A stretch of 32,000 nucleotides of DNA from Candidatus Electrothrix sp. GW3-4. Lineage in GTDB: Bacteria; Desulfobacterota; Desulfobulbia; Desulfobulbales; Desulfobulbaceae. The DNA is taken from assembly GCF_037902255.1 (NCBI RefSeq), contig NZ_CP147990.1:3150001-3182000 (forward strand), written 5' to 3'. Position 1 is the first letter of the stretch; each line of letters begins with the position of its first letter. Both the position numbers and the translations under genes were made by a program. The notes under the pieces were generated by a model. It did not search any database. It was not told where the DNA came from and saw only the letters and a program-made list of their open reading frames with translations. Of the stretch, positions 1-13,901 are shown one piece after another.

Positions 1-326
1 CCCGGATTTGAAGGGCGACCCGCCTTACCTGCCCATGCCTGTGCTTTACGGTCAAATGTGCTGATATAACTGATAGGTTTTGATTTTGCGGTGAATGTAA
101 ACTCAATAGATGCTTTCCCGGTTTCATGCGGCTTTGCCATCAGCCCTGCAGGAAGCCGGGGATTGACTTCTGCTGGCCATTTTTTAGTAAGCGACCACCA
201 AATGATATCCAGCAGAAAACTTTTTCCCAGCCCATTGTCACCGGTCAGCAAGTTCAGCCGCTCGCCGAATTCCAGCTGCAAAGCAGGAGCCGGGCCTACA
301 TTGTTCATGTTCAGTTGCTTAATCAT
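1..326 (-). CDS. AAA/SMC/ABC-type ATPase, N-terminal ~108 codons only (gene continues beyond the left window edge)
   Basis: Absent from the ORF track because it is open at the window edge. My minus-strand translation from the ATG at 326 is MIKQLNMNNVGPAPALQLEFGERLNLLTGDNGLGKSFLLDIIWWSLTKKWPAEVNPRLPAG... The Walker A motif GDNGLGKS sits ~30 aa from the start after a short beta lead-in, the RecF/SMC/OLD-type ATPase head layout. AGGA lies ~9 nt upstream of the ATG. Confidence 0.55.
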   Translation of the reverse strand, partial: MIKQLNMNNVGPAPALQLEFGERLNLLTGDNGLGKSFLLDIIWWSLTKKWPAEVNPRLPAGLMAKPHETGKASIEFTFTAKSKPISYISTFDRKAQAWAGKAGRPSNP

Positions 327-451
327 GGCACCAATCCTGTTTACTCTTCTTATTCAATCACATAGCCCCTCTTTCCTGTTTCAACACCGGGGACGGAAAA
401 GGCACTACAGAAAAACTATATCAGAATCACCTGGATCATTTTTCACGGATT

Positions 452-1048
452 TCAGAGATTCAGTCCACGCAGGACCCCTCCCTCGGAAAACAGCTCCAGG
501 ACAGTCAGGGAAGCGGGCTGGACATCGAAGAGCAGGTAGTTACGGGGAGAGATACCCAGGGCAAGACAAATCATGGTCCGGATGACACCACCGTGCGTCA
601 TAACAGCAACGGTATTATGCTCTGATGCGCTGAACATTGCCAGCATGGCCTCAACCCGGGCAATAAAGGCTGAGACCGCTTCTCCTTCTGGAAAGACAAA
701 GTCCAGGTATTGATTCCAGGCAGCGAGCTGCTCTTTATCCTGAGCAGCAATATCAGCAAAAGTTTGCAACTCCCAGCGTCCGAAGTTAATCTCCCGCAAA
801 CGGTCCTCATAGAGAGGTTCTCCCACCGGGCAGCCCAGCTGACGCACATGTTCCAGGGTCTGCCGGGTCCGCAGCATGGGACTGCAATACCAGCATTCAC
901 CCCCTTTCACGTCTGTTACGATATTACCTAAACGGGCAAGACCCTGGCCAGACAAAGGAACATCGCTGCTGCCAACAAGGCAACCCGAGGGGGCAGTGGT
1001 GGGTCCGTGACGGAGGAGAAGAAGCCGGGTCGGCATAGAGTCGGTCAT
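452..1048 (-). CDS. Histidine phosphatase family protein (phosphoglycerate-mutase-like; CobC/alpha-ribazole-phosphatase-like size)
   Basis: 198 aa. It has the N-terminal LLLLRHGPT (RHG catalytic motif) and the C-terminal MTHGGVIR second His motif. Length is typical of CobC-like enzymes. Confidence 0.8.
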   Translation of the reverse strand: MTDSMPTRLLLLRHGPTTAPSGCLVGSSDVPLSGQGLARLGNIVTDVKGGECWYCSPMLRTRQTLEHVRQLGCPVGEPLYEDRLREINFGRWELQTFADIAAQDKEQLAAWNQYLDFVFPEGEAVSAFIARVEAMLAMFSASEHNTVAVMTHGGVIRTMICLALGISPRNYLLFDVQPASLTVLELFSEGGVLRGLNL

Positions 1049-1062
1049 TCTATTAAACTCTT

Positions 1063-1143
1063 ATCCCGCTCCCTGGGGCGGGACAACAAAACATGCAAGA
1101 GAGGAAGCCTGGTTGGCTTATCCGACCACCTTCATATAAAAAT
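1063..1143 (+). repeat. Copy A of an ~80-bp structured intergenic repeat (GC hairpin plus conserved ACAACAAARCATG...CTGGTTGGCTT...CCGACCACYTTCATATAAA tail)
   Basis: tatcccgctccctggggcgggACAACAAAaCATGcAAGagaGGAAGcCTGGTTGGCTTatCCGACCACcTTCATATAAAAA aligns with copies at 27838-27917 and 27924-28002. Confidence 0.75.
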
Positions 1144-1208
1144 TTCATAAAGTACAGTTATCGTCCAGGGAAGACACAGGTGCGCAGGTTCTCCAATATA
1201 CACCCATT

Positions 1209-1256
1209 ACATACTCCTCTGTATACTCCACTGTATACTCCACTGTATACTCCATT
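1209..1256. repeat. Four tandem 12-bp units (acatactcctct / gtatactccact / gtatactccact / gtatactccatt), each centred on GTATAC
   Basis: Read directly from the sequence. It lies in the 446-bp divergent intergenic region between the histidine phosphatase gene (-) and the OMP gene (+). It also produces the spurious HTPLYTPLYTPLY ORF at 1093..1380. Confidence 0.85.
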
Positions 1257-1494
1257 GCCCCAGGGATACCAACGAGAAAAACATAGGTGTTTTGTACCAT
1301 TCCCAAGCCTTGCCTTCCTGAGCTTTGAGAACCTTTCCCCAGCAAGGCCTACCACAGCAAAGGAGGTCTCCCCTGTATAACTCTTTTTCCTGTCATATTT
1401 TTTTTATTTACTTCCCCTTTATTAATTCTGTATCCTATCAAGGATAGCGTAATATTTTTTTTAAGCAATGCTGAACCCTACACAGGAGGAAGAA

Positions 1495-2190
1495 ATGAAA
1501 AAGGTGATAGCAGCAGGGGCAATATTTCTGCTGGCCAGCGGGTCTCAACTATCCTATGCAGAAACCCAAAAAGTTGAACTGGAGGAAGTACAGCAACCCC
1601 AACAAGCATCACATCGCGATTGGGCAATCAGCGGATATATCGGTATGACGGATTTTGACGGCGACGAAAAACCAGATCCCTATCAACCGGAAAGAAGAAG
1701 CCATGAAATGGAATCAGATGCCGCCCTGACAGCGGGTGTTATCCTCAGTAAATATTACAAGGATTTCTCATTCAACCTCGGCATTGAATATATTCAGGAA
1801 GTCACCGTAGAAGACGAAGACGGTAACGAGCTCTCTGAACATAGCCACATCCCCATTTCTTTGGGTGTGAATTATCACTTTTATACAAACATCGTGGATC
1901 CGTATATTGGAGCTGGTATAGGCTATTCCTTCAACGACTCTTCAGACAGCGAATTTATCGCTAACCAGGGAATGAGTGCAGAAGTTGACGATAGCATGTT
2001 CTACTTTCTGACAGCTGGTGTCGAGTACCCTGTCAATGACAAGTATGCCCTCTTTTTGGCAGGACAGTACATTATCGGCGATGCTGATATGAAGGGAACC
2101 ATAGAAAGGCCCGAGGGAACGTTTGTGATAGAGGATGAGGCCAATATGGATCGCTATGAAGTAAATGTAGGTGTTAAATACTTCTTTTAA
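1495..2190 (+). CDS. Outer-membrane beta-barrel protein (small OMP/OmpW-like porin family)
   Basis: I chose the ATG at 1495 (MKKVIAAGAIFLLASGSQLSYA signal peptide) because AGGAGG sits at 1484-1489. The ORF track starts at 1468. The sequence shows alternating amphipathic strands, aromatic girdle residues and a C-terminal ...VGVKYFF ending in Phe. Confidence 0.75.
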   Translation: MKKVIAAGAIFLLASGSQLSYAETQKVELEEVQQPQQASHRDWAISGYIGMTDFDGDEKPDPYQPERRSHEMESDAALTAGVILSKYYKDFSFNLGIEYIQEVTVEDEDGNELSEHSHIPISLGVNYHFYTNIVDPYIGAGIGYSFNDSSDSEFIANQGMSAEVDDSMFYFLTAGVEYPVNDKYALFLAGQYIIGDADMKGTIERPEGTFVIEDEANMDRYEVNVGVKYFF

Positions 2191-2231
2191 AAAGGAGCAC
2201 ACCGAACCGTTTACCAAACAGTTTCTGGTAC

Positions 2232-2283
2232 AAAGGCTGCCCTGGCGCAGCCTTTAACGACAAGAAAAAGAGCGGGCTCTTTT
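2232..2283. terminator. Two hairpins between convergent OMP and cheB genes (AAAGGCTGC-cctggc-GCAGCCTTT, then AAAAGAGC-gg-GCTCTTTT)
   Basis: A perfect 9-bp stem spans 2232-2255. The second, A/T-flanked palindrome spans 2266-2283. No long U-tract follows the first hairpin. Confidence 0.35.
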
Positions 2284-2311
2284 CCCGAGCGCCCCCCCTT
2301 CCCGTCCGACT

Positions 2312-2917
2312 TCATAGCAGCACCGGAGCTGTCCCTTCCTGCCCGACCGGGCAATCATCAGTAAGGCTCAGCAAAAAATTCCCTAACTCGGCCAGGGGCA
2401 ATATATAATCAACCTCTGTACAGGCCAAGGCCGCCCTGGGCATCTCAGGGAACTTGGCCGTTGCAGGATCTTCTACCAAAGTCAGCCCACCATATTCTTT
2501 GATCCGTTGCAGACCACGGGCACCGTCATGATTAGCTCCGGTCATGAGGACACCGACCAGCTCAGCACCGTAGACGTCTGCTGCACTCTCAAACAGGACA
2601 TCAATGGAGGGGCGTGAGTAATTCACCTTTTCATCAAAGGCCAGCGAAAAGGTTTCATCCCGCTCAACAAGGAGATGATAATCAGGTGGAGCAATATAAA
2701 TATGTCCCGGCAAGATCCTCTCCTTTTCCTCCGCCTCTTCAACCTTGAGCGCTGTTCGCTCATTATAAAACCGGACCAAGGTCCTGTCTTGCTCCTTATG
2801 CAGATGCTGGACAAGGATAATCGGCAGAGCAAATTGCGCAGGCAATTTGCTCAGGATATGCACAAAGGCCTCTATGCCCCCAGCCGAAGCCCCAAGAACT
2901 ATCGCCTTATATCTCAT
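2312..2917 (-). CDS. cheB: Protein-glutamate methylesterase CheB, catalytic domain only (no N-terminal receiver)
   Basis: 201 aa starting directly at MRYKAIVLGASAGGIEA (Ser nucleophile motif GASAGG). It also has LVQHLH (His) and LMTGANHDGARGL (Asp). Its start overlaps the cheR stop (ATGA). Confidence 0.85.
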   Translation of the reverse strand: MRYKAIVLGASAGGIEAFVHILSKLPAQFALPIILVQHLHKEQDRTLVRFYNERTALKVEEAEEKERILPGHIYIAPPDYHLLVERDETFSLAFDEKVNYSRPSIDVLFESAADVYGAELVGVLMTGANHDGARGLQRIKEYGGLTLVEDPATAKFPEMPRAALACTEVDYILPLAELGNFLLSLTDDCPVGQEGTAPVLL

Positions 2918-3762
2918 ACCTGGGACGGGAAGCTGTGCGCAACATGTTTACGATATATCCTGTTCTTCCTGTCCAGCCGTTCATACTGCTCAGCCAAACT
3001 GAAAAATCGGAGCGACTCCCTGCCACCAAGGCAGAGAAAGCCCCCCCTGATCAGACTTTGGTCAAAGAGCTTCAGCACCCTGTCCTGTAATTTCTTATCA
3101 AAATAAATCATCACATTACGACAGAGAATGAGATGCATCTCTCCAAACACCTGATCAGAAACAAGGTTATGGTTGGCAAAGGTAATCTTGTTCTTTAACC
3201 CCCTATCCATAACGACATCATCCTGATCAGCATGATAATATCTGCTAAAAGAGTGAACAGAGCCTGTCTCCTGAAAATTTTCCGTATACTCCCGCACCTG
3301 TTTCAAGGGATAGATCCCCCTTTTGGCTTTGGCCAGGGATTCATCATTGATGTCTGTGGCAAAAAGGGTTGCCTTTTCCAAGAGTCCTTCCTCTTTCAGT
3401 AAAATAGCGACAGAATAGGCTTCTTCTCCGGTTGCACAGCCAGCCACCCAGATCTTAATGAAGGGATACGTTTTCAAAAGCGGGACCACTTCTTCCCGCA
3501 ATGCCCGATAAAAGGCAGGGTCGCGAAACATCTCTGTAACGGTAACGGAGAACTCACACAGGAGACTTTGGAAAAACAAGGGTTCACGAATAATCCTGGG
3601 CAACAACGCACCAATCGTCTCGACGTCGTTCTTGGCAAGAAACTGCTCAATACGCCTGCGAATAGTAGCTTGAGCATAATTGCGAAAATCATAGCCGTAA
3701 CGAAGAAAAACAGCCTCCAGTAACAGGGTCCGCTCAATCTCTTCAAGTTCTTTTTCCTGCAT
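2914..3762 (-). CDS. cheR: Chemotaxis-type protein-glutamate O-methyltransferase CheR
   Basis: It has the N-terminal helical domain LLLEAVFLRYGYDFRNYAQATIRRRI and the SAM-binding IWVAGCATGEEAYSVAILL. I prefer the ATG at 3762 (AGGTGG just upstream). The ORF track's GTG at 3810 would overlap the kinase stop by 16 nt. Confidence 0.85.
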   Translation of the reverse strand: MQEKELEEIERTLLLEAVFLRYGYDFRNYAQATIRRRIEQFLAKNDVETIGALLPRIIREPLFFQSLLCEFSVTVTEMFRDPAFYRALREEVVPLLKTYPFIKIWVAGCATGEEAYSVAILLKEEGLLEKATLFATDINDESLAKAKRGIYPLKQVREYTENFQETGSVHSFSRYYHADQDDVVMDRGLKNKITFANHNLVSDQVFGEMHLILCRNVMIYFDKKLQDRVLKLFDQSLIRGGFLCLGGRESLRFFSLAEQYERLDRKNRIYRKHVAHSFPSQV

Positions 3763-3794
3763 AGACCACCTGTTATCTTTTTCCAAGGCACACG

Positions 3795-6700
3795 CTATCT
3801 GTACAGCCACACCCGCATCATAGAAAGCAGCCTCTCTACATCAACTGGTTTTGCCAGGTAATCACTGGCACCTGCTTCAAGACATTTATCCCGATCATCC
3901 TTCATCGCCTTGGCAGTTAAGGCAATAATCGGCAGCTTCCAAAACTGCTTTTGCTCCCGTATGCTCCTCGTTGCCTCATACCCGTCCATCTCCGGCATCA
4001 TGATATCCATCAGCACGATATCAATGCCCTCTTCCTGGACCAGCATCTCTAATGCCTTTTTTCCATCTTCTGCGACAATCACTTCCATCCCCTTCTGCTC
4101 AAGAACCCCGGAAAGAGCAAAAACATTGCGCATATCGTCATCAACAAGAAGGACCTTTTTTCCCTGAAACATCTTGTCCCGATCATAGAGGTCAGCAATA
4201 ATTTGCTGTTGTTGAGCAGGCATGGTTTCCACCATTCTATGGAGAAAGAGTGAAGTCTCGTCAAGTAGCCGTTCCTGTGACCGAGCATCTTTAATAATAA
4301 TGGATTCTGAATACCTCTTCAGTTCACGTTCCTCTTCTCTGGTCAAATCCCTGCCGGTATAGATAATAACGGGAGGAATAACAAGATCAGCAGCGCCTGC
4401 CAATCGCTGCAGCAGTTCAATCCCGTTGCAGTCAGGAAGCCCAAGGTCCAGCACCATGCAGTCAAATCGTTGTGCTCCTAAGAGCTTCTCTACCTCTTTT
4501 CCTGTTCTGGCCTCAAAGGTTTCTGTGTCGCTATTTCCGACCAAATCGACCAAAACGCTTCGCAACTTATCGTCGTCCTCAACAACCAAGAGCTTCTTTA
4601 TCTTTTTATTGATAACAGACTCAAAACGATCAAAGGCCGCAATCAACTGCTCCCGAGTGACCGGCTTAGAAAGGAAACCAATAGCACCGAGGTTCATCGC
4701 CTTACGACTCACCTCTTCCGCAGACATCATATGGACGGGTATATGACGAGTGCTGGCATTGGACTTCAGGCTGCTCAGCACTGTCCAGCCATCAATCCCA
4801 GGCAATCGGATATCCAGAATAATTCCAGAAGGACGATATTGCTCAGCCAGTTGCAGCCCCTCTTCACCATTATCCGTCACCAGGGCCTTAAAGTCAGATT
4901 CATGACATTGGTCTAAAAGGATCTCAGCAAATTTGGGATCATCTTCAACAAGCAACATAACCCTGTCTTGGTCAGCAAGATGGTCTCGATCGTCCGGCAC
5001 TGCGAAGGGCCGAGCCCCAGCATCTCTCTCATCCGCCTGTGGAGATCCGGTGTTTGGAGCCACAACAGGTTCTGCCTGCTGTGGTTTATCGCCTTTTTCT
5101 GGCAAAGGTTCTGTGCCAAGAGGCAGATACAGGGTAAAGGTTGAGCCCTTTCCACGTTCACTGACCAACCCGATCTCTCCACCGAGCAAGGCAGCCAATT
5201 CTTTTGAAATTGAGAGGCCAAGACCGGTGCCACCGTACTTCCGGGCCGTTGAGCCATCTGCCTGCTGGAACGCCTCAAAGATAAAACGTTGTTTTTCTGC
5301 CGGGATGCCGATACCTGTATCCTTAACAGAAATGGCGATGGCCTGTTCAGGTTGCAAGGTCTCTGATTGAAGCCGTGCTGTTGCTGGCATCCGTGCAATC
5401 ATCAGCTCAATTCGGCCTTCTGCGGTGAACTTGATGCTATTACCGAGAAAATTTTTCAAAATCTGCTCAACACGTTTACGATCAGTGAAGATTGATTGCG
5501 GAAGATCATCGGCCAGGTTAACAGAAAAAACCACTCCCTTGTTTTCCGCCATATGTTTGAACAGGGTTTGGGCATTCTCCGCCAAATCAGTCAACGGAAC
5601 TTCTTCCACATCCTTGACGATCTGTCCTGCCTCAATCTTAGAGAGGTCCAGGATCTCGTTAATAAGATCTAAAAGATCATTGCCTGATTCAACAATGATA
5701 CCGGCTGATTTCTGCTGTTTTTCCGTCATATTGCCGTCCTTATTTGCGGCAAGGGATTGGGCAAGGAGTAACAGGCTATTCAGCGGGGTACGCAGTTCAT
5801 GGCTCATATTGGCCAAAAACTCAGATTTATATTTCGAGGCCAAAGCAAGATCCTTGGAACGTTCCTCTATTCGTTCCTTTGCCGCAAGAAGTTCTTCATT
5901 ACGTTTCTTTATTTTCTTCCTTTCCACCATCAGGGCTTCTGATTTCTCTTCAAGAGCAGCATTGGTTTCTTTGAGTTCTTCCTGCTGGCTTTCCAGCTCC
6001 TGCTGAAAGTTTTTCAGAGCGATCGTCTGGGACTCCAGTTCTTCGTTGGTTGCCATCAGCTCTTCACTCTGCTGCCTTAATTCCTCGGCCTGCTCGCGGG
6101 TCTCTCCCAGGAGTTCCTCTACTTCCTGTTTGCTTCGGGCAGAGCGGAAGGCTATGGCGATATGCTCGGTCACAGTATCCAGAAATTCCATCTGCTCATC
6201 TGTGATCTCTGCAAAAGCAGCAAACTCAAGCACCCCAAGTAATGCCTCTTCATGGAGAAAAGGAACCGCCAGAAGATTACAGGGTGATGCATCTCCCAAC
6301 GTAGAATTGATCCGGACATAATCTTCTGGAAGATCCGTGACCGAGATCATATTTTTCTCCAATGCGGCCTGCCCGGCAATCCCTTCGCCTATGGTTACCC
6401 TGCTATTGAGCCCCTTACGTTTATGAAAGGCATAACTCCCCTTCAGAGTCATGGTCTCTCCGCTGCGGTCAACAAGGTACAGGGAGGCCATCTGGACATT
6501 AAGGAGTTTGGCGAGATAAGCAATAATATTCATCGCCAAGGTCGAAATATCCTGCTCACCCCGCATCTGGTCAGAGAGTTCTGCCATTGCGGTTTTTTCA
6601 TGGAAATTTTTCGCCACTGTTTCCGCCATGCGGTCCAGGGCATTGGCCATCTGGCCGATCTCATCCGTACGCTGCATATTAAGGCGGCGGTGAAAATCAC

Positions 6701-7856
6701 CAGCAGCGATCCCGTCGGCTATTCCAGCCGCCTGGACAACAGGACGACTGATTGAGCGGACAATCAACCAGGCAATGACCCCAACAATAAAGAAGGTCAA
6801 AAGAAGACCTGTGAGAACCCATCTTGTAACCTTATTCTCCACATCAATACGGATTTCATTCACAGCGGTCCGGGACCGCATCGCCTCTGCCTCATCAGAT
6901 TCACAGATAAGCGCCCATCGGGCATCGAATACATCAACCGGTACCCAGGATGCAAGCACCCTCTTCCCGCGATAATCCAGGATAATTCCCGTCCCCTTTT
7001 CTCCCCCAATCGCATTTCTACTGGCCACCGTATTGACCTTATTCCCCTGCCGGAAGGACTCTACCCGACTGTAATTATCTGGATCCAAAACAGAATCTGA
7101 ACGCATATACCCATCTGCCCCCACGAGATAGGCCTCCAGCGACTCTGTCTTGCTCGAGGCCAGCTTGATCGTATTCCTCAAGGCCTCGGTGGAGGGCTGG
7201 ACAGCCAGATACCCAAGCTCCTCTTTTCTTTCTCCTGAACTGTCATATATCCGAGTAATCAGGAAAGCTGAGGGAAGGTTAGCCAACGGTGGGTAGGGCG
7301 CATAATCTCCAAAGGCAATCTCCCGCTCCTGCTCCGTACGAATCTGAGAATACGCCCTGCCAAGAGAGGTATTTTTTAAGGGATTCATGACCAATGACTT
7401 ACCGAGATCAGAGGACTTCTGCATAGAATAAATTATATCCCCGTCCCGATTGATCAGGTAAAGATTATTCCAGTCAAGGTGAACACAGAGGTACTGAAAA
7501 AGGACATCATTCAACAAGGCCAGAGAGTTCCACTCATCGCTTTCCACCGAATCTCTGGCCAGCCGGAACTCCCTGTCAACAGACTGGAATGTCTCCTGAA
7601 GCCATGAATTATCCCGTAACATGTACATCTGCCCTTCCATCGTCCGAAAAAAATAGGCTATCTGCTTTTCCTTTATGCTACACATGGTTGTGAGCTGATC
7701 ATGGGCAACATGCTCCACAGCCGCGACGCTTGTCTCACCAATGGTCTCAAAGCCCCTTGAGACAGTTAACCAGATCACAACGCTGATAAACAACAAAGGG
7801 AGTATTCCCATGCCGAGATGAGAGAAAATCAATTTTGCGCCCAGATTGAATCTCAT
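3795..7856 (-). CDS. Hybrid sensor histidine kinase: TM, ~330-aa periplasmic Cache-like domain, TM, HAMP, GAF, long coiled coil, HisKA, HATPase_c, then three receiver domains
   Basis: The H-box is FLANMSHELRTPLNS (His codon at 5799-5801). The ATPase G-boxes are DTGIGI and GGTGLGLSISK. The three REC domains are LLVEDD...ILDIRLPGIDG, LLVVEDD...VLDLGLPDCNG and VLLVDDD...LMDIMMPEMDG. I place the start at MRFNLGAKLIF (7856) because GGAGAAGAA lies immediately upstream. The longer ORF from 7964 would overlap the upstream gene. Confidence 0.9.
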   Translation of the reverse strand: MRFNLGAKLIFSHLGMGILPLLFISVVIWLTVSRGFETIGETSVAAVEHVAHDQLTTMCSIKEKQIAYFFRTMEGQMYMLRDNSWLQETFQSVDREFRLARDSVESDEWNSLALLNDVLFQYLCVHLDWNNLYLINRDGDIIYSMQKSSDLGKSLVMNPLKNTSLGRAYSQIRTEQEREIAFGDYAPYPPLANLPSAFLITRIYDSSGERKEELGYLAVQPSTEALRNTIKLASSKTESLEAYLVGADGYMRSDSVLDPDNYSRVESFRQGNKVNTVASRNAIGGEKGTGIILDYRGKRVLASWVPVDVFDARWALICESDEAEAMRSRTAVNEIRIDVENKVTRWVLTGLLLTFFIVGVIAWLIVRSISRPVVQAAGIADGIAAGDFHRRLNMQRTDEIGQMANALDRMAETVAKNFHEKTAMAELSDQMRGEQDISTLAMNIIAYLAKLLNVQMASLYLVDRSGETMTLKGSYAFHKRKGLNSRVTIGEGIAGQAALEKNMISVTDLPEDYVRINSTLGDASPCNLLAVPFLHEEALLGVLEFAAFAEITDEQMEFLDTVTEHIAIAFRSARSKQEVEELLGETREQAEELRQQSEELMATNEELESQTIALKNFQQELESQQEELKETNAALEEKSEALMVERKKIKKRNEELLAAKERIEERSKDLALASKYKSEFLANMSHELRTPLNSLLLLAQSLAANKDGNMTEKQQKSAGIIVESGNDLLDLINEILDLSKIEAGQIVKDVEEVPLTDLAENAQTLFKHMAENKGVVFSVNLADDLPQSIFTDRKRVEQILKNFLGNSIKFTAEGRIELMIARMPATARLQSETLQPEQAIAISVKDTGIGIPAEKQRFIFEAFQQADGSTARKYGGTGLGLSISKELAALLGGEIGLVSERGKGSTFTLYLPLGTEPLPEKGDKPQQAEPVVAPNTGSPQADERDAGARPFAVPDDRDHLADQDRVMLLVEDDPKFAEILLDQCHESDFKALVTDNGEEGLQLAEQYRPSGIILDIRLPGIDGWTVLSSLKSNASTRHIPVHMMSAEEVSRKAMNLGAIGFLSKPVTREQLIAAFDRFESVINKKIKKLLVVEDDDKLRSVLVDLVGNSDTETFEARTGKEVEKLLGAQRFDCMVLDLGLPDCNGIELLQRLAGAADLVIPPVIIYTGRDLTREEERELKRYSESIIIKDARSQERLLDETSLFLHRMVETMPAQQQQIIADLYDRDKMFQGKKVLLVDDDMRNVFALSGVLEQKGMEVIVAEDGKKALEMLVQEEGIDIVLMDIMMPEMDGYEATRSIREQKQFWKLPIIALTAKAMKDDRDKCLEAGASDYLAKPVDVERLLSMMRVWLYR

Positions 7857-7866
7857 ATTCTTCTCC

Positions 7867-8862
7867 TCAGGAGAGAGCCTTTTCCTGCAAGGCATTTTTT
7901 CCTTGATAGACGACAACCCGATTCCGGCCGCTTTCTTTTGCCTGATACAAGGCCTCATCGGCAAAAGAAATCATACAGCTTGCGGTTTGATGCACTTCTT
8001 TATTATAGGAGGTCACCCCTATGCTTACGGTGATTTTCACAGCATAGTTTCTGTCATCAATCATTGTTTCTTCACATTTCCGACGTATTTTTTCGGCGGT
8101 CTTTGCGGCACCGCCCGCACCAGTCAGAGGTAAAAGGACAATGAACTCTTCCCCACCGAAACGAAACACCAGGTCAGACTTTCGAACCGTTGTTCGCAGA
8201 AGAGTAGAAAACGCTTTCAGTACATAATCACCAAACTCGTGCCCAAAATTATCATTGATGTTTTTAAAATGATCAAGATCAAGCATGATCAGAGAGAGCT
8301 CTGTTCCATGCCGGCAACAACGATTGAATTCCTGCTCCAGAGAAGCAACAAGATGACGACGATTACAAAGCCCTGTCAGATCATCATGGGTTGAAAGCCG
8401 TTGCAACTGCCTATTCTGCTTCAAAACCAATTTCTTGGTCTTCTCAAGCTCCTGAATAGTCTCTTTCAGCTTGATTTTCTGGAGATATATCTCAATAAAA
8501 AATTGTATCTTCCCTGCAAGGATTTCCGGAGAAAAAGGTTTGGTAATAAAATCAACCGCCCCGGAATCGTATCCTTTAAAAATATGAAAATCGTCGGAAT
8601 AAATAGCGGAGAGAAAAATGATAGGGAGCTTCGAGGTCTGTTTTCGATTCCTGATCAGTTGAGCCAGTTCGTACCCGTCCATTTCGGGCATCTGCACATC
8701 GAGAATCGCCAAAGCGAAATCGTGCGTCAAGGCCTCACGAAGGGCATCATTACCACTGGTTGCCTTAATAAAGGTAGCACCAACGCCACTAAAAGTTTCC
8801 TCCAACGCAATGAGATTATTTATCTTATCGTCAACAATCAGTATATCAACCGTATCAACCAT
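7867..8862 (-). CDS. Response regulator-diguanylate cyclase (REC-coiled coil-GGDEF, PleD/WspR-like)
   Basis: The REC domain reads ILIVDDK...ILDVQMPEMDGYEL...K. The GGDEF domain has an intact GGEEF active site, and an RxxD I-site (RKSD) sits 5 residues upstream of it. The gene ends 10 nt before the kinase start. Confidence 0.9.
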   Translation of the reverse strand: MVDTVDILIVDDKINNLIALEETFSGVGATFIKATSGNDALREALTHDFALAILDVQMPEMDGYELAQLIRNRKQTSKLPIIFLSAIYSDDFHIFKGYDSGAVDFITKPFSPEILAGKIQFFIEIYLQKIKLKETIQELEKTKKLVLKQNRQLQRLSTHDDLTGLCNRRHLVASLEQEFNRCCRHGTELSLIMLDLDHFKNINDNFGHEFGDYVLKAFSTLLRTTVRKSDLVFRFGGEEFIVLLPLTGAGGAAKTAEKIRRKCEETMIDDRNYAVKITVSIGVTSYNKEVHQTASCMISFADEALYQAKESGRNRVVVYQGKNALQEKALS

Positions 8863-9096
8863 ACAGCTTTCCTGTCAATTATGCTCAAGCTTCGAAAAAG
8901 TTAAAAAAAGAGAATAGATCATTCTTCTTATTATATGTTACCAGTTTATTCTTGGGAAGATAATACCCTGATAAATCTCTTCTGTTCATTCCGTTGCCCA
9001 TTTCAACAATTTTCCCTGTCAATTCCAGCGTATTTTTTTCGTAAATGAAAGTATATCAGGCAAGATTGGGAAATGGGCTGAAATATGGAAAAAATG

Positions 9097-9124
9097 TTGC
9101 CTTTTTTGAGTCTGTATGTATAAT
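9097..9124 (+). promoter_or_regulatory. Candidate sigma70-type promoter for rpmB (TTGCCT-N16-TATAAT)
   Basis: The hexamers are at 9097-9102 and 9119-9124, ~43 nt upstream of the rpmB ATG. AAGGAG lies before the ATG. Confidence 0.35.
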
Positions 9125-9166
9125 ATCGCCTTTAACAAATAACCCGTTGCAAGGAGCATATATATC

Positions 9167-9361
9167 ATGGCGCGTAAATGTGAGATTTGTGGAAAAGGAC
9201 CGGTAACTGGCAATAATGTCAGCCATGCCCATAATAAAACGAAACGGCGTTGGTTGCCGAACCTGCAAAAGGTCAGAACAGTCACCGACAGCGGCCAAAC
9301 ATCCCGCTTGCTTGTATGCACTCGTTGCATTCGCTCTGGGGCTGTTGTCAAGCCTGCCTGA
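9167..9361 (+). CDS. rpmB: 50S ribosomal protein L28
   Basis: [34 protein letters not shown]... is the canonical L28 N-terminus. Length is 64 aa. Confidence 0.95.
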
Positions 9362-9382
9362 GCTGTTTATCGGCCACCTTCA

Positions 9383-9419
9383 GGGGCGAGAAGATTTTCT
9401 TCTTCCGCCCCCTTTTTTT
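9383..9419 (+). terminator. Rho-independent terminator after rpmB
   Basis: An imperfect GC-rich stem, GGGGCGaGAAGA-tttt-CTTCTTCcGCCCC, is followed by CTTTTTTTG. Confidence 0.6.
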
Positions 9420-9508
9420 GTTAATAGCATATTGCTATAAAAGAGAAAAGCTTTGAACCACTTCTAGCAGTACGATAGATAGTACCTTTATAGGACAGGA
9501 GAAATATT

Positions 9509-9763
9509 GTGAGCAATGAAGAAGTTCATTTTCTTCCTTTTGACGAAGCTGTCAACATCGTGGGAGCAATTCAAGAAGAGGAAGATATTGACGACGCAAC
9601 CCATCGAATCTTTACAGTGTACTCCAAGGACGACAAGGAGCTCTGCTGGTTTGATTTCGAGGAGGTAGTACAAGATGTGCAACCTGTAAAAGGCGATAAG
9701 GGAAAAGAACAGGTAACGGAGTATATTTTACACCGTATACCGGACTGGGTCCTTGAGCTGTAA
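9509..9763 (+). CDS. Small acidic hypothetical protein (84 aa, GTG start)
   Basis: AGGAGA lies 6-7 nt upstream of the GTG at 9509. I recognise no family. The coding call rests only on ORF length, the RBS and the absence of competing genes. Confidence 0.45.
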   Translation: MSNEEVHFLPFDEAVNIVGAIQEEEDIDDATHRIFTVYSKDDKELCWFDFEEVVQDVQPVKGDKGKEQVTEYILHRIPDWVLEL

Positions 9764-9924
9764 TGCTCTTCGTTCGTCGCGAGAAACAAAATCTTTTCGT
9801 TCTCTCCCATTGTTTTTTCCTTTTTGCTGTTGCCTCCAGGTGGGCTCTTAGTATAGACTATACATAGTAGGATCTTTTCTTTTACAAAGATAGCTTGCCG
9901 TCAAATAATTCTCTCACGTATCTC

Positions 9925-10998
9925 ATGAAAAAGTTTGCATATTCAATGATTCCCAAAAGACTCCACTTCGTCATCACCGGTGAAGTTGGCGCTGGTTTGT
10001 CCTTTGTTGTTCGTCGGGATCATATAGCCCTCATCCTCGCTGTTACCCTCTCCACCCTGACCGCCTTGGCAGTGGGGACTTGGCTGGGGATGGGCTTTTT
10101 TCAAGAAAGAAATTCTCTCGCTCTCAAGACCACACTTCAGGCGGACGCCCTCAGAGAATTATCAGAAAATTTTGACCAGCACCTCAAAGAACAGCTTGCA
10201 GCACAAAAAAATGCGTGGCAGGCTAAAGAGGATGCCTATCACGCCGAGATACAAAATCTCAGAGAAGAGAAAGAGGAGGTCATCTGTCGCTATGAGGAGG
10301 AAATTGCCTCAGCCGACATATCAACTGCTGTAAAAATATCAGGTTTGCTTGCAGAGCTTGAGCAAGAAAAACAAGAAAAACAAGAGCTTCTTGAAAAAAC
10401 AGCCGTGCGCCTCGACGAACGCAGCCGAATGATTGAGTCGGTGATGAGCCGAATTGGTGTGGATGTAAAGGTCGGCAAGAAAAGTACAGCGAACAGCGGT
10501 GGTCCCTTCATTGCTATTGATGAAAAGTATAGCGAAAGCCTCTTAAACAGAAGCGACAAGTATATAAAAACTATACGAAAAATGCCGCTCGGATATCCCA
10601 TGCGAGGAAGAATAACAAGTGGTTTCGGTCGCCGTTCTGACCCAATTAATAGTCGCCCGGCATTTCATGCGGGTATTGATCTTAAGGGAAGGATAGGGCA
10701 AAACATTAAGGCCACCGCAGACGGTATAGTAACGCATTCTTCCTACGACAAAAATGGTTTTGGTAATTTTGTCATTCTGCGTCATGGCAACGGTTATGAA
10801 ACCGTGTTTGGACATATGAGTAAAAGGTTGGTCAAAAAGGGAGAGAGAATTCAACGTGGACAGGTGGTAGGCCTGATGGGAAACACCGGACGTTCTACGG
10901 GGCCTCATCTGCATTACGAGGTTCGTTACAAAGGAGAACCGATCAATCCAAAAAAATACCTGTCAGTAGCCAAACTATCATTTACCGTACCTGAATAA
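9925..10998 (+). CDS. Membrane-anchored M23 (LytM-type) peptidoglycan endopeptidase with a coiled-coil linker
   Basis: It has a TM helix (IALILAVTLSTLTALAVGTWLGMGFF) and a Glu/Gln/Lys-rich coiled coil. The C-terminal M23 domain carries HAGIDL (HxxxD) and GPHLHYEV (HxH) metal ligands. The start is uncertain: ATG 9925 is preferred and the track uses TTG 9895. Confidence 0.85.
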   Translation: MKKFAYSMIPKRLHFVITGEVGAGLSFVVRRDHIALILAVTLSTLTALAVGTWLGMGFFQERNSLALKTTLQADALRELSENFDQHLKEQLAAQKNAWQAKEDAYHAEIQNLREEKEEVICRYEEEIASADISTAVKISGLLAELEQEKQEKQELLEKTAVRLDERSRMIESVMSRIGVDVKVGKKSTANSGGPFIAIDEKYSESLLNRSDKYIKTIRKMPLGYPMRGRITSGFGRRSDPINSRPAFHAGIDLKGRIGQNIKATADGIVTHSSYDKNGFGNFVILRHGNGYETVFGHMSKRLVKKGERIQRGQVVGLMGNTGRSTGPHLHYEVRYKGEPINPKKYLSVAKLSFTVPE

Positions 10999-11023
10999 CA
11001 GGCGATGAGGAGACGTTGCACCG

Positions 11024-11500
11024 ATGGCCTTATTTAAGAAAGAAGAAAAAGTCGAGCCGATCAGAAATGAAATAAGTGCACCTCAGGAGAGAAGAACAGT
11101 GAAAAACGAGAAAGACCCCATAGCGAGCGTTCTTGCAAAGGAGATGACGATTACAGGCGAGATCAGCTTCAAAGGAAAAGCTCGCTTTGACGGAACGGTT
11201 GAGGGAGACATTAACGGAGAATATCTCATCCTCAGTGATACAGCTCGGGTGACGGGTAATATCACCGTAACCACCTTGGTCTGCCACGGAAAAGTTGAGG
11301 GAAATGTTATTGCAGAGGTCGTGACAGCCCATGCGACTTCGGAGATACACGGTATCCTGAAATCACAAAATCTCACTGTCGAATCTGGTGCCTCCCTTGA
11401 AGGCGAAATTCATGCCAGCTCTCGGAAACAGGGTGCAAACAATCCACCACCTAAAAAGACCGAAGCAAACGAATCCTCAGATAAAAGGACGAAAAAATAG
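11024..11500 (+). CDS. Bactofilin (polymer-forming cytoskeletal protein, DUF583 beta-helix) with a charged C-terminal tail
   Basis: The core has repetitive beta-helical turns: MTITGEISFKGKARFDGTVEGDINGEYLILSDTARVTGNITVTTLVCHGKVEGNVIAEVVTAHATSEIHGILKSQNLTVESGASLEGEI. GAGGAG lies upstream. Confidence 0.85.
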   Translation: MALFKKEEKVEPIRNEISAPQERRTVKNEKDPIASVLAKEMTITGEISFKGKARFDGTVEGDINGEYLILSDTARVTGNITVTTLVCHGKVEGNVIAEVVTAHATSEIHGILKSQNLTVESGASLEGEIHASSRKQGANNPPPKKTEANESSDKRTKK

Positions 11501-11538
11501 CAGAGCTTCCTGATCGACTCCTTTATATCCCTCCAATC

Positions 11539-11582
11539 AAGACGAAGGTACCTGCTTTGTAGGTTTACCATCGTCTTTTTTT
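11539..11582 (+). terminator. Rho-independent terminator after the bactofilin gene
   Basis: The stem AAGACGAAGGTA-(15-nt loop)-TACCATCGTCTT has one mismatch and is followed by TTTTTT. Confidence 0.65.
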
Positions 11583-11625
11583 ATGCAGTCCGCGCTGTTG
11601 CCCTCCTCCAAAATCTTGAGTAGCA

Positions 11626-12936
11626 ATGCCTCCTGAAAAAAAGGACAATATAACTCCCCAGCTCGTGTTTGACCGACAACATATCTGGCATCCCTATACC
11701 TCCATGGAGAGCCCGTTACCGGTCTACCCGGTCAAATCGGCAAGCGGCGTTCGCATCACCTTACAGGATGGGCGTGAACTTATCGATGGCATGTCCTCTT
11801 GGTGGGCAGCCATTCATGGGTATAACCATCCAACACTCAACGCTGCACTCTCGGCACAGGCAGGCAAGGTTGCCCATATTATGTTTGGTGGCCTCACCCA
11901 TGAACCAGCCATTGAACTCTGTCGCCTATTGCTCGAATTGACGCCAACCGGTCTGGACAAGGTCTTTCTCTGCGATTCAGGTTCGGTCTCCGTGGAAGTG
12001 GCCTTAAAAATGGCCCTTCAGTACCAGCAGGCCAGAGGGTTGAAGAGAAAAAGGCGTTTCCTTACTGTACGCGGTGGCTATCACGGCGATACCTTTCATG
12101 CCATGTCGGTCTGCGATCCGCTCACCGGGATGCATACGGTCTTTTCCGGGGCCCTGCCTGAGCAACTCTTTGCCCCTCGTCCACAATGCCGCTTCAGCAT
12201 GCTTGCCAAAGACTGGCAACAGGACGACATTGCCTCCATGAGCAAACTCCTGGCCGGGCATCACGAAGAAATCGCCGGGGTCATCCTGGAACCGATCGTC
12301 CAAGGGGCTGGCGGCATGTGGTTCTACCATCCTCAGTACCTCAGAGAGCTCCGTGGACTCTGTGATCGTTATGATGTCCTCTTGCTCTTTGACGAAATTG
12401 CCACCGGTTTTGGGCGAACAGGGAAACTCTTTGCAGCAGAACATGCCGGGGTCAGCCCGGATATCTGCTGCCTGGGCAAGGCCCTCACGGGAGGCTATAT
12501 GACCTTGGCCGCCACCCTTTGTTCAGAGCAGATCGCCCAGGGGATTTCCCATGGCACGCCTGGCCTGTTCATGCACGGCCCCACCTTTATGGGCAATCCC
12601 CTGGCCTGCGCGGTTGCAGTGGCCTCAATCAAGCTGCTGTTGGCAACCAATTGGCAGAAAAGAGTAGAGGCCCTTGAACAACAACTCAGGCAGGAACTTG
12701 AACCGGCAAGAAGCTCGGAAGCAGTGGCCGATGTCCGGGTCCTTGGCGCCATCGGGGTCCTGGAGATGAAACAGCCAGTTGATATGGAGATTTTGCAAAG
12801 ATTCTTTATTGATCAAGGGGTCTGGGTTCGTCCCTTTAATAAATTGATCTATCTGATGCCCCCCTATACGATCAGCAGCGAGGACCTGAGCAGACTCACC
12901 AGGGCAGTGCGTAAAGCAGTTGATCTGGCCAAATAA
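11626..12936 (+). CDS. bioA: Adenosylmethionine-8-amino-7-oxononanoate aminotransferase
   Basis: [44 protein letters not shown] and LGKALTGGY (PLP Lys) are the BioA class-III aminotransferase signature. Length is 436 aa. Confidence 0.9.
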
Positions 12937-12974
12937 CAGGATGGTCACGGTAGTCTATCAAAGCTATAAGGCTG

Positions 12975-13901
12975 TCAGCTCTTACCGTAATGTCCCTCCA
13001 CGGTTTGCACCAGTCGTACCAAGGTCTGATTCACTGGCACAGCCATCTCCACCTCCTGGGCCTTGCGAAGAATATAACCGTTAATGGCATCTATTTCTGT
13101 GGGACGCTGTCCATCAACATCCTGCCCCATGGAGGAACGATTGGAGGCCGTGGCCCGGGCCACCTGCGCAACATGCTCCAAAATAGCAGGAGGCACCGCA
13201 ATGGAATGCGCCTCAGCAACAGCGACGGCCTCAGCAACAACATCCTCCATCAATAAGCTCGTCGCCTGTTGGTCAAGCAGTTGCCCATTGCGCAGGCCTG
13301 TCAGGGCAGTAAGGGCATTGATCCCCACATTGACGAAGAGCTTATGCCAGAGAACAGGCGCAATATCATCAACAGCCCGACAGCTGATCCCTGCTGCTGA
13401 AAAGACCTCAGCCACCTCTGCTGCTCGTGCTATGGCACCTCTTCCCGGCCGCCACAAGCCAAGAACCGTCTCCCCTACGCCCGAATGCTGAATCCTCCCC
13501 AGGCCCAGGACCATGGCCCCCTGCGCCGTTGTGCCGCAGAGCACCCGCTCCTCTCCAAGGATGTCAGCAATAATCTCGGCATTGCCCATACCGTTCTGGA
13601 GGGTCAGGGCATAGCCCGTCTTTTCCAATAAACGAGCAGCCGTGCGGGCAGCTGCCTCGGTCTGGGCATGTTTCACAAAGATCAGGGCGAGATCTGTCGC
13701 GGCGATTGCCGCTGGGTCAGTCACTGCTCGGACCCTGACCACCCTTTCCTGGCCGTGATGATGGATAATGAGCCCTTGTTCGTTCAGGGACCTGACCTGT
13801 TCTTCATGGACATCCAGCAGCTGGACATCCATGCCGTGTTCACTGAGGAGTCCACCAAACAGGCAGCCCATAGCACCGGCACCAATAATTGTTATTTTCA
13901 T
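12975..13901 (-). CDS. panE: 2-dehydropantoate 2-reductase (ketopantoate reductase, ApbA/PanE family)
   Basis: It has the N-terminal Rossmann motif MKITIIGAGAMGCLFGGLL. Its 308 aa and the central NGMGN and C-terminal SSMGQD-type motifs are typical of the family. Confidence 0.8.
   Translation of the reverse strand: MKITIIGAGAMGCLFGGLLSEHGMDVQLLDVHEEQVRSLNEQGLIIHHHGQERVVRVRAVTDPAAIAATDLALIFVKHAQTEAAARTAARLLEKTGYALTLQNGMGNAEIIADILGEERVLCGTTAQGAMVLGLGRIQHSGVGETVLGLWRPGRGAIARAAEVAEVFSAAGISCRAVDDIAPVLWHKLFVNVGINALTALTGLRNGQLLDQQATSLLMEDVVAEAVAVAEAHSIAVPPAILEHVAQVARATASNRSSMGQDVDGQRPTEIDAINGYILRKAQEVEMAVPVNQTLVRLVQTVEGHYGKS

Follow-up and report, generated by a model that had tools for sequence, protein, structure and literature searches.

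A four-gene operon of Candidatus Electrothrix sp. GW3-4 as a probable chemoreceptor-free, methylation-tuned two-component system

In textbook chemotaxis, reversible methylation serves as the memory device. What do the methylation enzymes CheR and CheB act on when they are encoded in an operon that contains a hybrid sensor kinase and a diguanylate cyclase, and no chemoreceptor? Such an operon is present in the 32,000-nucleotide (nt) stretch of the Candidatus Electrothrix sp. GW3-4 genome analysed here (contig NZ_CP147990.1, positions 3,150,001 to 3,182,000; hereafter “the window”, whose coordinates are used unless the contig is named). A sequence-only reading of the window had hypothesized that the coiled coil of the kinase is itself the CheR/CheB substrate. 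Synteny, co-occurrence, conservation, genomes devoid of methyl-accepting chemotaxis proteins (MCPs), and phylogeny support this hypothesis, and we regard it as probable, on the basis of these sequence comparisons, that the operon represents a MAC2-type, chemoreceptor-free, methylation-tuned two-component system.

The four genes are arranged head to tail on the minus strand (open reading frame (ORF) list and Pfam). They encode a response regulator of the REC-GGDEF type, i.e. a diguanylate cyclase (7867..8862, Pfam), a membrane hybrid sensor kinase (3795..7856; 1353 aa from the ATG at 7856, ORF 7964-3795; Pfam and DNA reading), a CheR-type S-adenosylmethionine (SAM)-dependent glutamate methyltransferase (2914..3762; Pfam, motif alignment and tree), and a CheB methylesterase/deamidase of 201 aa that lacks a receiver (REC) domain (2312..2917; Pfam and alignments). 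The stop codon of the cyclase gene is separated by 10 nt from the kinase ATG, the kinase stop codon by 32 nt from the CheR ATG, and the CheB start and the CheR stop share 4 nt (ATGA), in agreement with the four co-directional genes with gaps of about 10-30 nt or overlaps that had been described from the sequence. A scan of the window ORFs within 1-13,901 revealed no MCP, CheA, or CheW domain, so that the absence of such domains from the flanking genes, also noticed in the sequence-only reading, stands.

The domain architecture of the kinase was determined with Pfam. It comprises a periplasmic dCache_1 sensor domain (6906..7706), a HAMP domain (6618..6767), a GAF domain (6147..6554), the coil, a HisKA (DHp) domain (5625..5828) with the phospho-acceptor His722 at nt 5799-5801, a HATPase_c catalytic domain (5115..5483), and three C-terminal receivers (3810..4964; ORF residues 1001-1112, 1123-1238, and 1269-1385), all on the minus strand. 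Every one of the three receivers keeps the DD pocket and the phospho-acceptor Asp. The dCache domain is bracketed by two hydrophobic segments (ORF residues 45-72 and 379-406). All kinase residue numbers are counted from ORF position 7964, not from the ATG at 7856, which is preceded by GGAG and is the likely start (DNA reading). An NCBIfam search of the kinase yielded nothing above the curated cut-off, i.e. only sub-threshold generic matches (TorS, BarA, HrmK).

The segment between the GAF and HisKA domains is a Glu-Glu heptad ladder (signalling helix; 5829..6125, minus strand), which is the candidate methyl-accepting segment according to heptad phase, AlphaFold2 prediction, and conservation. 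A coil had been placed at about 5830-6135 before, and the peptide quoted for it (AEELRQQSEEL...EEKSEA) is the exact translation of nt 6089-5934. The heptads are, in order, QAEELRQ, QSEELMA, TNEELES, QTIALKN, FQQELES, QQEELKE, TNAALEE, and KSEALMV, continuing up to FLANMSH, and their x-x-E-E-L-x-x phase does not shift between residue 625 and the H-box. EE pairs are found at ORF residues 616/617, 627/628, 634/635, 641/642, 662/663, and 690/691, and QQ or QE pairs at residues 631/632, 654-656, and 660/661. With an alignment of 44 homologues as input, AlphaFold2 predicts one unbroken helix (residues 597-740) that joins the last GAF helix, the ladder, and the DHp helix carrying His722, with a pLDDT of ~90 across roughly residues 626-706. 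Because the single helix continues unbroken into the DHp helix, a parallel two-stranded coiled coil is its likely form in the kinase dimer. A fold-back hairpin as in MCPs was also considered for the coil and was rejected because the heptad phase is unbroken and the model contains a single helix. No family for the coil was found in the Pfam library searched, which does not include PF28019, a family listed for some homologues. All Electrothrix kinases have NAAL at residues 668-671 (5952-5963), at the place of NEEL in the family, and a one-heptad insertion (RKKIKKR) before the last EE pair. To judge from the sequence, the NAAL resembles a naturally uncharged form of one candidate methylation site.

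To place the operon among its relatives, loci were collected with the window CheB as query and one genome per species, and the best 80 of the 338 relatives' loci were compared. The closest ones, with 75-85% identity, are from Candidatus Electrothrix, in accordance with the source being a cable bacterium. CheR is encoded directly upstream of CheB in 77 of the 80 loci, and a GAF-coil-HisKA-HATPase-REC kinase precedes CheR in 65 of them; most of the others end at a contig edge. CheB is devoid of a receiver in nearly all of the 80 loci, which belong to Bacteroidota, Cyanobacteria, Nitrospirota, Desulfobacterota, Actinomycetota, Alphaproteobacteria, Spirochaetia, Acidobacteriota, and Gemmatimonadota. 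The operon arrangement is thus far from chance, because 65 of the 80 loci, from many phyla, show the same order of genes. A synteny survey had been proposed together with the substrate hypothesis, and its outcome, REC-less CheB and CheR beside coil kinases in about ten phyla, favours the hypothesis. The gene after CheB usually encodes a REC-kinase, and in several Desulfobacterota a REC-GGDEF protein; in Electrothrix, the REC-GGDEF gene is located upstream of the kinase gene instead of after CheB. CheB is fused to the downstream REC-kinase in two loci (L037:8982-11426 and L062:912-3338; one each, Sericytochromatia, Cyanobacteriota), suggesting a functional tie between the esterase and the second kinase. 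In a further locus, L026, one open frame (7673..9166) covers both CheR and CheB, apparently as a fusion.

The ladder is also the best conserved of the compared kinase segments. Its consensus is QAEELEx QQEELKQ SNEELQE KTxLLEK SEAELKx QQEELQQ TNEELEE. When the Electrothrix sequences are set aside, the commonest residue of a column has a mean frequency of 0.74 in the ladder; the corresponding values are 0.53 in GAF, 0.68 in HATPase, and 0.63 in REC. At the solvent-facing Q, E, and N positions (QQEEL, NEEL), conservation is at least 90%; an enzyme recognition site would be expected to show such a pattern, a passive linker would not. With the coil alone as query, the search retrieved hybrid kinases with dCache, 4HB_MCP, or CHASE3 sensors, always in the order HAMP-GAF-coil-HisKA. 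Among 121 genomes of the order, 37 contain the coil together with this type of CheB, 5 the coil only, 2 the CheB only, and 77 neither, counts to which related genomes contribute non-independently; coil and CheB are often 3-5 kb apart on one contig.

Three isolate genomes of Bacteroidota (Belliella, Niastella, and Cytophaga) contain the operon and have no match to the MCP signalling domain; the Belliella genome has a single CheR. In a maximum-likelihood tree, the kinase-linked CheRs, including that of the window, form one clade (SH-aLRT 99), with the fusion-kinase CheRs as its sister group; eleven MCP-linked CheRs, including one from another Electrothrix genome, fall apart from it. This tree is a quick search, and the coherence of the kinase-linked set is partly built in, since this set was gathered by CheB similarity.

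The catalytic motifs of both enzymes are intact. CheR (likely ATG at 3762) consists of CheR_N and the SAM-binding CheR domain (Pfam) and contains the CheR-type motifs AGCATGEEAYS, ATDIN, and CRNVMIYFD, as seen in an alignment with the CheR of the genome's own fusion kinase (see below). The methylesterase domain of CheB occupies residues 6-181 of 201, with an intact catalytic triad (Ser11-His38-Asp131, alignments) and without the N-terminal receiver of canonical chemotaxis CheB, so that the previous description of CheB as methylesterase domain only is correct.

How does the operon compare with characterized systems? In MAC proteins, receptor and kinase are parts of a single polypeptide, and CheB/CheR are either fused to it (MAC1) or associated with it (MAC2) (PMC6943060; bioRxiv 10.1101/2022.05.07.491037). 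According to the citations in these two sources, the class goes back to a 2010 definition by Wuichet and Zhulin. About 80% of MAC-bearing species hold other chemosensory systems too (PMC6943060; bioRxiv 10.1101/2022.05.07.491037), and the 2022 preprint describes MAC proteins as experimentally uncharacterised (bioRxiv 10.1101/2022.05.07.491037). The window operon resembles MAC2 in that a conserved coil and the kinase core are combined in one protein, with separate CheR and CheB alongside and no CheA, CheW, or MCP, and the Electrothrix genome likewise holds further chemosensory systems; this placement is one by architecture and gene context, compared with the published class description. The operon differs from most of its MAC2 relatives in its linked REC-GGDEF gene, where these have a REC-kinase, and otherwise in nothing of substance.

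The nearest experimental precedent is RsbK of Bacillus cereus, a CHASE3-HAMP-GAF-signalling helix-kinase-REC protein, the helix of which is methylated by the CheR-type enzyme RsbM in vitro, as detected with 14C-SAM (PMC4574943). Methylation and the inhibitory C-terminal receiver jointly hold the kinase off, and 127 RsbK-like kinases were counted in ten phyla (PMC4574943). The RsbK-RsbM-RsbY module is attributed to Chen et al. 2012, as cited in PMC4574943. The window kinase shares with RsbK the order sensor-HAMP-GAF-helix-HisKA-HATPase-REC and a CheR-type gene in the operon, a likeness judged from the architecture. It differs by its dCache sensor and three receivers, in contrast to CHASE3 and one receiver in RsbK. 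RsbM, in addition, is an orphan without esterase, and sigma-B is controlled through a PP2C phosphatase as the output, whereas the window operon encodes CheB and a REC-GGDEF output. The idea of coil methylation is therefore not new: MAC2 was predicted in 2010, and the principle has been partly demonstrated in B. cereus.

A second precedent is the cfcABCDE operon of Pseudomonas putida, in which the gene for the hybrid kinase CfcA is followed by CheR (cfcB) and CheB (cfcC) genes without a role in chemotaxis (PMC4951495; PMC6849547). His496 of CfcA is needed for the activity of the REC-GGDEF-EAL regulator CfcR, and the receiver that is most similar to that of CfcR is that of CfcD (PMC4951495). Both systems combine a GAF hybrid kinase, CheR/CheB, and an output of the REC-GGDEF type (again, as judged from the architecture), and both have a second partner with a closely similar REC, i.e. 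CfcD in P. putida and a REC-PAS-kinase paralogue in Electrothrix (see below). The differences are the CHASE3 sensor of CfcA, the additional EAL domain of CfcR, and a reversed linkage: the linked partner is the REC-kinase in P. putida and the cyclase in Electrothrix, the respective other one being unlinked.

The sequence-only reading had spoken of a Wsp-like logic without the chemoreceptor array, an apt description of the operon. The Wsp system (WspA MCP, WspB/D CheW, WspE CheA, WspC CheR, WspF CheB, and WspR REC-GGDEF) shares with it the logic of a surface or chemical signal that acts, via a methylation-tuned receptor, on the phosphorylation of a REC-GGDEF protein. However, the operon is not a Wsp system, because MCP, CheW, and CheA are missing, and its CheB is devoid of a receiver.

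From these likenesses and from the domain content, we infer that the coil is methylated and propose the following scheme, including the sign of the effect, the role of CheB, and the phosphotransfer route. A ligand would be sensed by the periplasmic dCache domain, as suggested by domain order and family knowledge, and the signal would be passed via HAMP and GAF to the parallel coiled coil of ~14 heptads and on to the DHp helix with His722. The heptad geometry would bury Leu, together with a residue that is small or polar, in the core and place the Glu-Glu pair at the solvent-facing side, where CheR could methyl-esterify ladder glutamates with SAM. The REC-less CheB would strip the methyl groups and may also deamidate the QQ/QE pairs. 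As CheB has no receiver, feedback would be exerted via the preference of each enzyme for one helix conformation, and not via phosphorylation. The neutralisation of charges is predicted by homology to alter helix packing and thereby to set the kinase output. Methylation might, as in the analogous RsbK of B. cereus, favour docking of the C-terminal receiver onto helix and DHp, i.e. the OFF state. His722 would phosphorylate D55 of the REC-GGDEF protein, raising c-di-GMP synthesis. The phosphoryl group would probably also reach the unlinked REC-PAS-HisKA-HATPase-REC paralogue, and the kinase's own three receivers could be regulators or phosphate sinks.

The proposed output is consistent with the features of the cyclase. 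The REC-GGDEF protein (331 aa) has D55 as receiver Asp, an intact GGEEF motif (residues 236-240, nt 8143-8157), and an RxxD motif (R227-D230) five residues before it; the GGEEF and the RxxD I-site had both been read from the sequence before. We compared its receiver with others. The scores against partner RECs of homologous operons in other phyla were 113-145 bits, those against RECs of its own genome at most 69 bits, with one exception at 151 bits. As the cyclase REC matches the conserved partner RECs of these operons, the cyclase is taken to be the cognate regulator. The exception is the N-terminal receiver of the unlinked REC-PAS-HisKA-HATPase-REC protein (contig 3911367-3913289, minus strand). 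Sequence similarity indicates that this protein is probably the relocated partner that adjoins CheB in other phyla, and the output pathway probably has two branches, the cyclase and the REC-PAS-kinase paralogue. Direct His-to-Asp transfer would be the simplest route; the Hpt domains of the genome are located in large multidomain ORFs, except for one in a 259-aa ORF.

If the operon is of this type, its significance is that MAC-type kinases suggest that methylation memory also tunes ordinary two-component pathways, in this case c-di-GMP synthesis. The class is widespread (about ten phyla; 37 of 121 genomes of the order) yet barely studied, and its only tested relative, RsbK, has no esterase. The locus adds a clean four-gene example with direct cyclase output and opens no new question. 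Its genome appears free of competing MCP methylation; cable bacteria are a poor experimental host.

Four observations weigh against the MAC2 assignment. First, the strict ten-residue consensus of MCP methylation sites, [ASTG][ASTG]xx[EQ][EQ]xx[ASTG][ASTG], has no match in the kinase, and the sole EExxA[ST] match in the coil is EELMAT at residue 634. Second, one conserved EE pair is missing from the Electrothrix lineage, where NEEL has become NAAL, and one heptad has been gained there. Third, Pfam revealed no Hpt domain in the kinase, and a hybrid kinase with receivers and without Hpt makes the phosphotransfer route less certain. Fourth, the window CheR is the only free-standing CheR of a genome that also encodes two MCPs, so that a second substrate is possible.

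The fourth point leads to the strongest alternative, i.e. that the CheR/CheB pair serves CheA-based clusters encoded at a distance and that its target is the two MCPs, not the kinase. The genome assembly consists of one 4.64 Mb contig. It contains two CheR homologues, the window CheR and one inside a fusion kinase, and a Pfam search as well as phmmer over all ORFs of at least 80 aa found no further CheR that could serve the CheA clusters. There are two such clusters, at 0.69 and 1.75 Mb from the operon. The Tfp-like cluster (1.38-1.40 Mb) contains neither CheR nor CheB, and the other one (2.44-2.46 Mb) encodes MCP, CheW, CheY, CheA, and three REC-CheB-like proteins, and no CheR. An alignment showed that all three cluster CheB-like proteins lack the catalytic His (E, Y, or N instead), two of them also the Ser, and one the Asp. 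The lack of CheR in either cluster thus argues for service by the window pair, as does the fact that, outside the fusion kinase, with the cluster CheBs being degenerate, the window enzymes are the only intact stand-alone ones; several closed genomes of the genus likewise have two MCPs and a single CheR. Nevertheless, we consider this alternative unlikely. The clade of the pair is tied to coil-kinases across phyla, also in genomes without an MCP match. The two MCPs of the genome have zero and one strict methylation-consensus match, respectively, and no C-terminal pentapeptide, which speaks against them as substrates. The window CheB has its closer match in the CheB domain of the fusion kinase (E 3.8e-27); its matches to the CheBs of the cluster are at 1.5e-17 or weaker. 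Finally, degenerate CheBs and a missing CheR fit a chemosensory system that operates without methylation, and, as far as their sequences tell, the CheA clusters seem to have abandoned it. The genes of the three cluster CheB-like proteins are located in contig 2443547-2462731 on the minus strand (L017:3547-4947, L017:10734-11804, and L018:926-2731). In the Tfp-like cluster, a 266-aa ORF (contig 1391531-1392331, plus strand) is situated between a five-Hpt CheA and a partial CheW; it has no Pfam match at E <=0.01.

A far-reaching extension of the MAC2 assignment would be that the kinase-cyclase pair is the cell's sole adapting, time-comparing sensor, which would steer filament behaviour, e.g. gliding or attachment in oxygen-sulfide gradients, via c-di-GMP and not via CheY. 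As the CheA clusters have no CheR and the triads of their CheBs are degenerate, the only intact CheR/CheB would belong to the two methyl-accepting kinases. We think it quite unlikely that this extension is correct.

It is highly improbable, in addition, that CheB is mainly a one-way glutamine deamidase that matures the QQ/QE pairs and that CheR methylation is a slow, near-irreversible set-point without true adaptation. The lack of a receiver for feedback on CheB and the presence of Q in several heptads where relatives have E would fit such a maturation, but a one-off maturation would require neither a full esterase triad nor a position beside CheR in 77 of 80 loci. Furthermore, adaptation in chemotaxis does not need CheB phosphorylation, which counts against the deamidase explanation. 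It gains some support from B. cereus, where RsbK-RsbM functions without a methylesterase and methylation by the orphan RsbM was proposed to be an essentially irreversible set-point (PMC4574943).

The chance is also very small that CheR/CheB act on another partner of the operon, e.g. a receiver of the cyclase or of the kinase, and that the coil is a rigid linker only: CheR methylation of a response regulator is on record (Salmonella PhoP, PMC8546571), and a receiver-containing gene nearly always adjoins CheB and is fused to it in two loci, but a passive linker would not hold solvent-facing E/Q at 90% or more across about ten phyla, identical NEEL heptads follow CheR in fusion kinases with other partners, and the methylated part of RsbK is the helix (PMC4574943).

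The fusion kinase mentioned above is of the MAC1 type (1702 aa; contig 2015340-2020448, L020:1340-6448, minus strand), with the architecture CheB-CheR-NEEL coil-PAS_10-several PAS-HisKA_2-HATPase. Eight [ST]xNEEL heptads (residues 669-720) directly follow its CheR domain; the NEEL segment after CheR that the sequence-only reading had named for CheB/CheR-fusion kinases is thus borne out within the same genome. The NEEL ladder is shared with the window kinase, and the CheR and CheB of the fusion kinase are the nearest in-genome paralogues of the window pair. In contrast to the window system with its separate enzymes and HisKA, the enzymes of the fusion kinase are fused N-terminally to the coil, and it has a PAS sensor and HisKA_2. 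A Tll0287-like GGDEF gene is located directly upstream of the fusion kinase gene and a REC-HisKA-HATPase gene directly downstream, so that both putative methyl-accepting kinases of the genome adjoin a diguanylate cyclase gene.

The genes flanking the operon in the window encode a histidine phosphatase, an OmpW-like protein, an M23 peptidase, a bactofilin, and an aminotransferase, all of which are unrelated to it. A sigma-70-like promoter candidate (TTCCCA-17-TATAAT; 8930..8958, minus strand), a pattern match from a consensus scan, is located 5′ of the cyclase gene.

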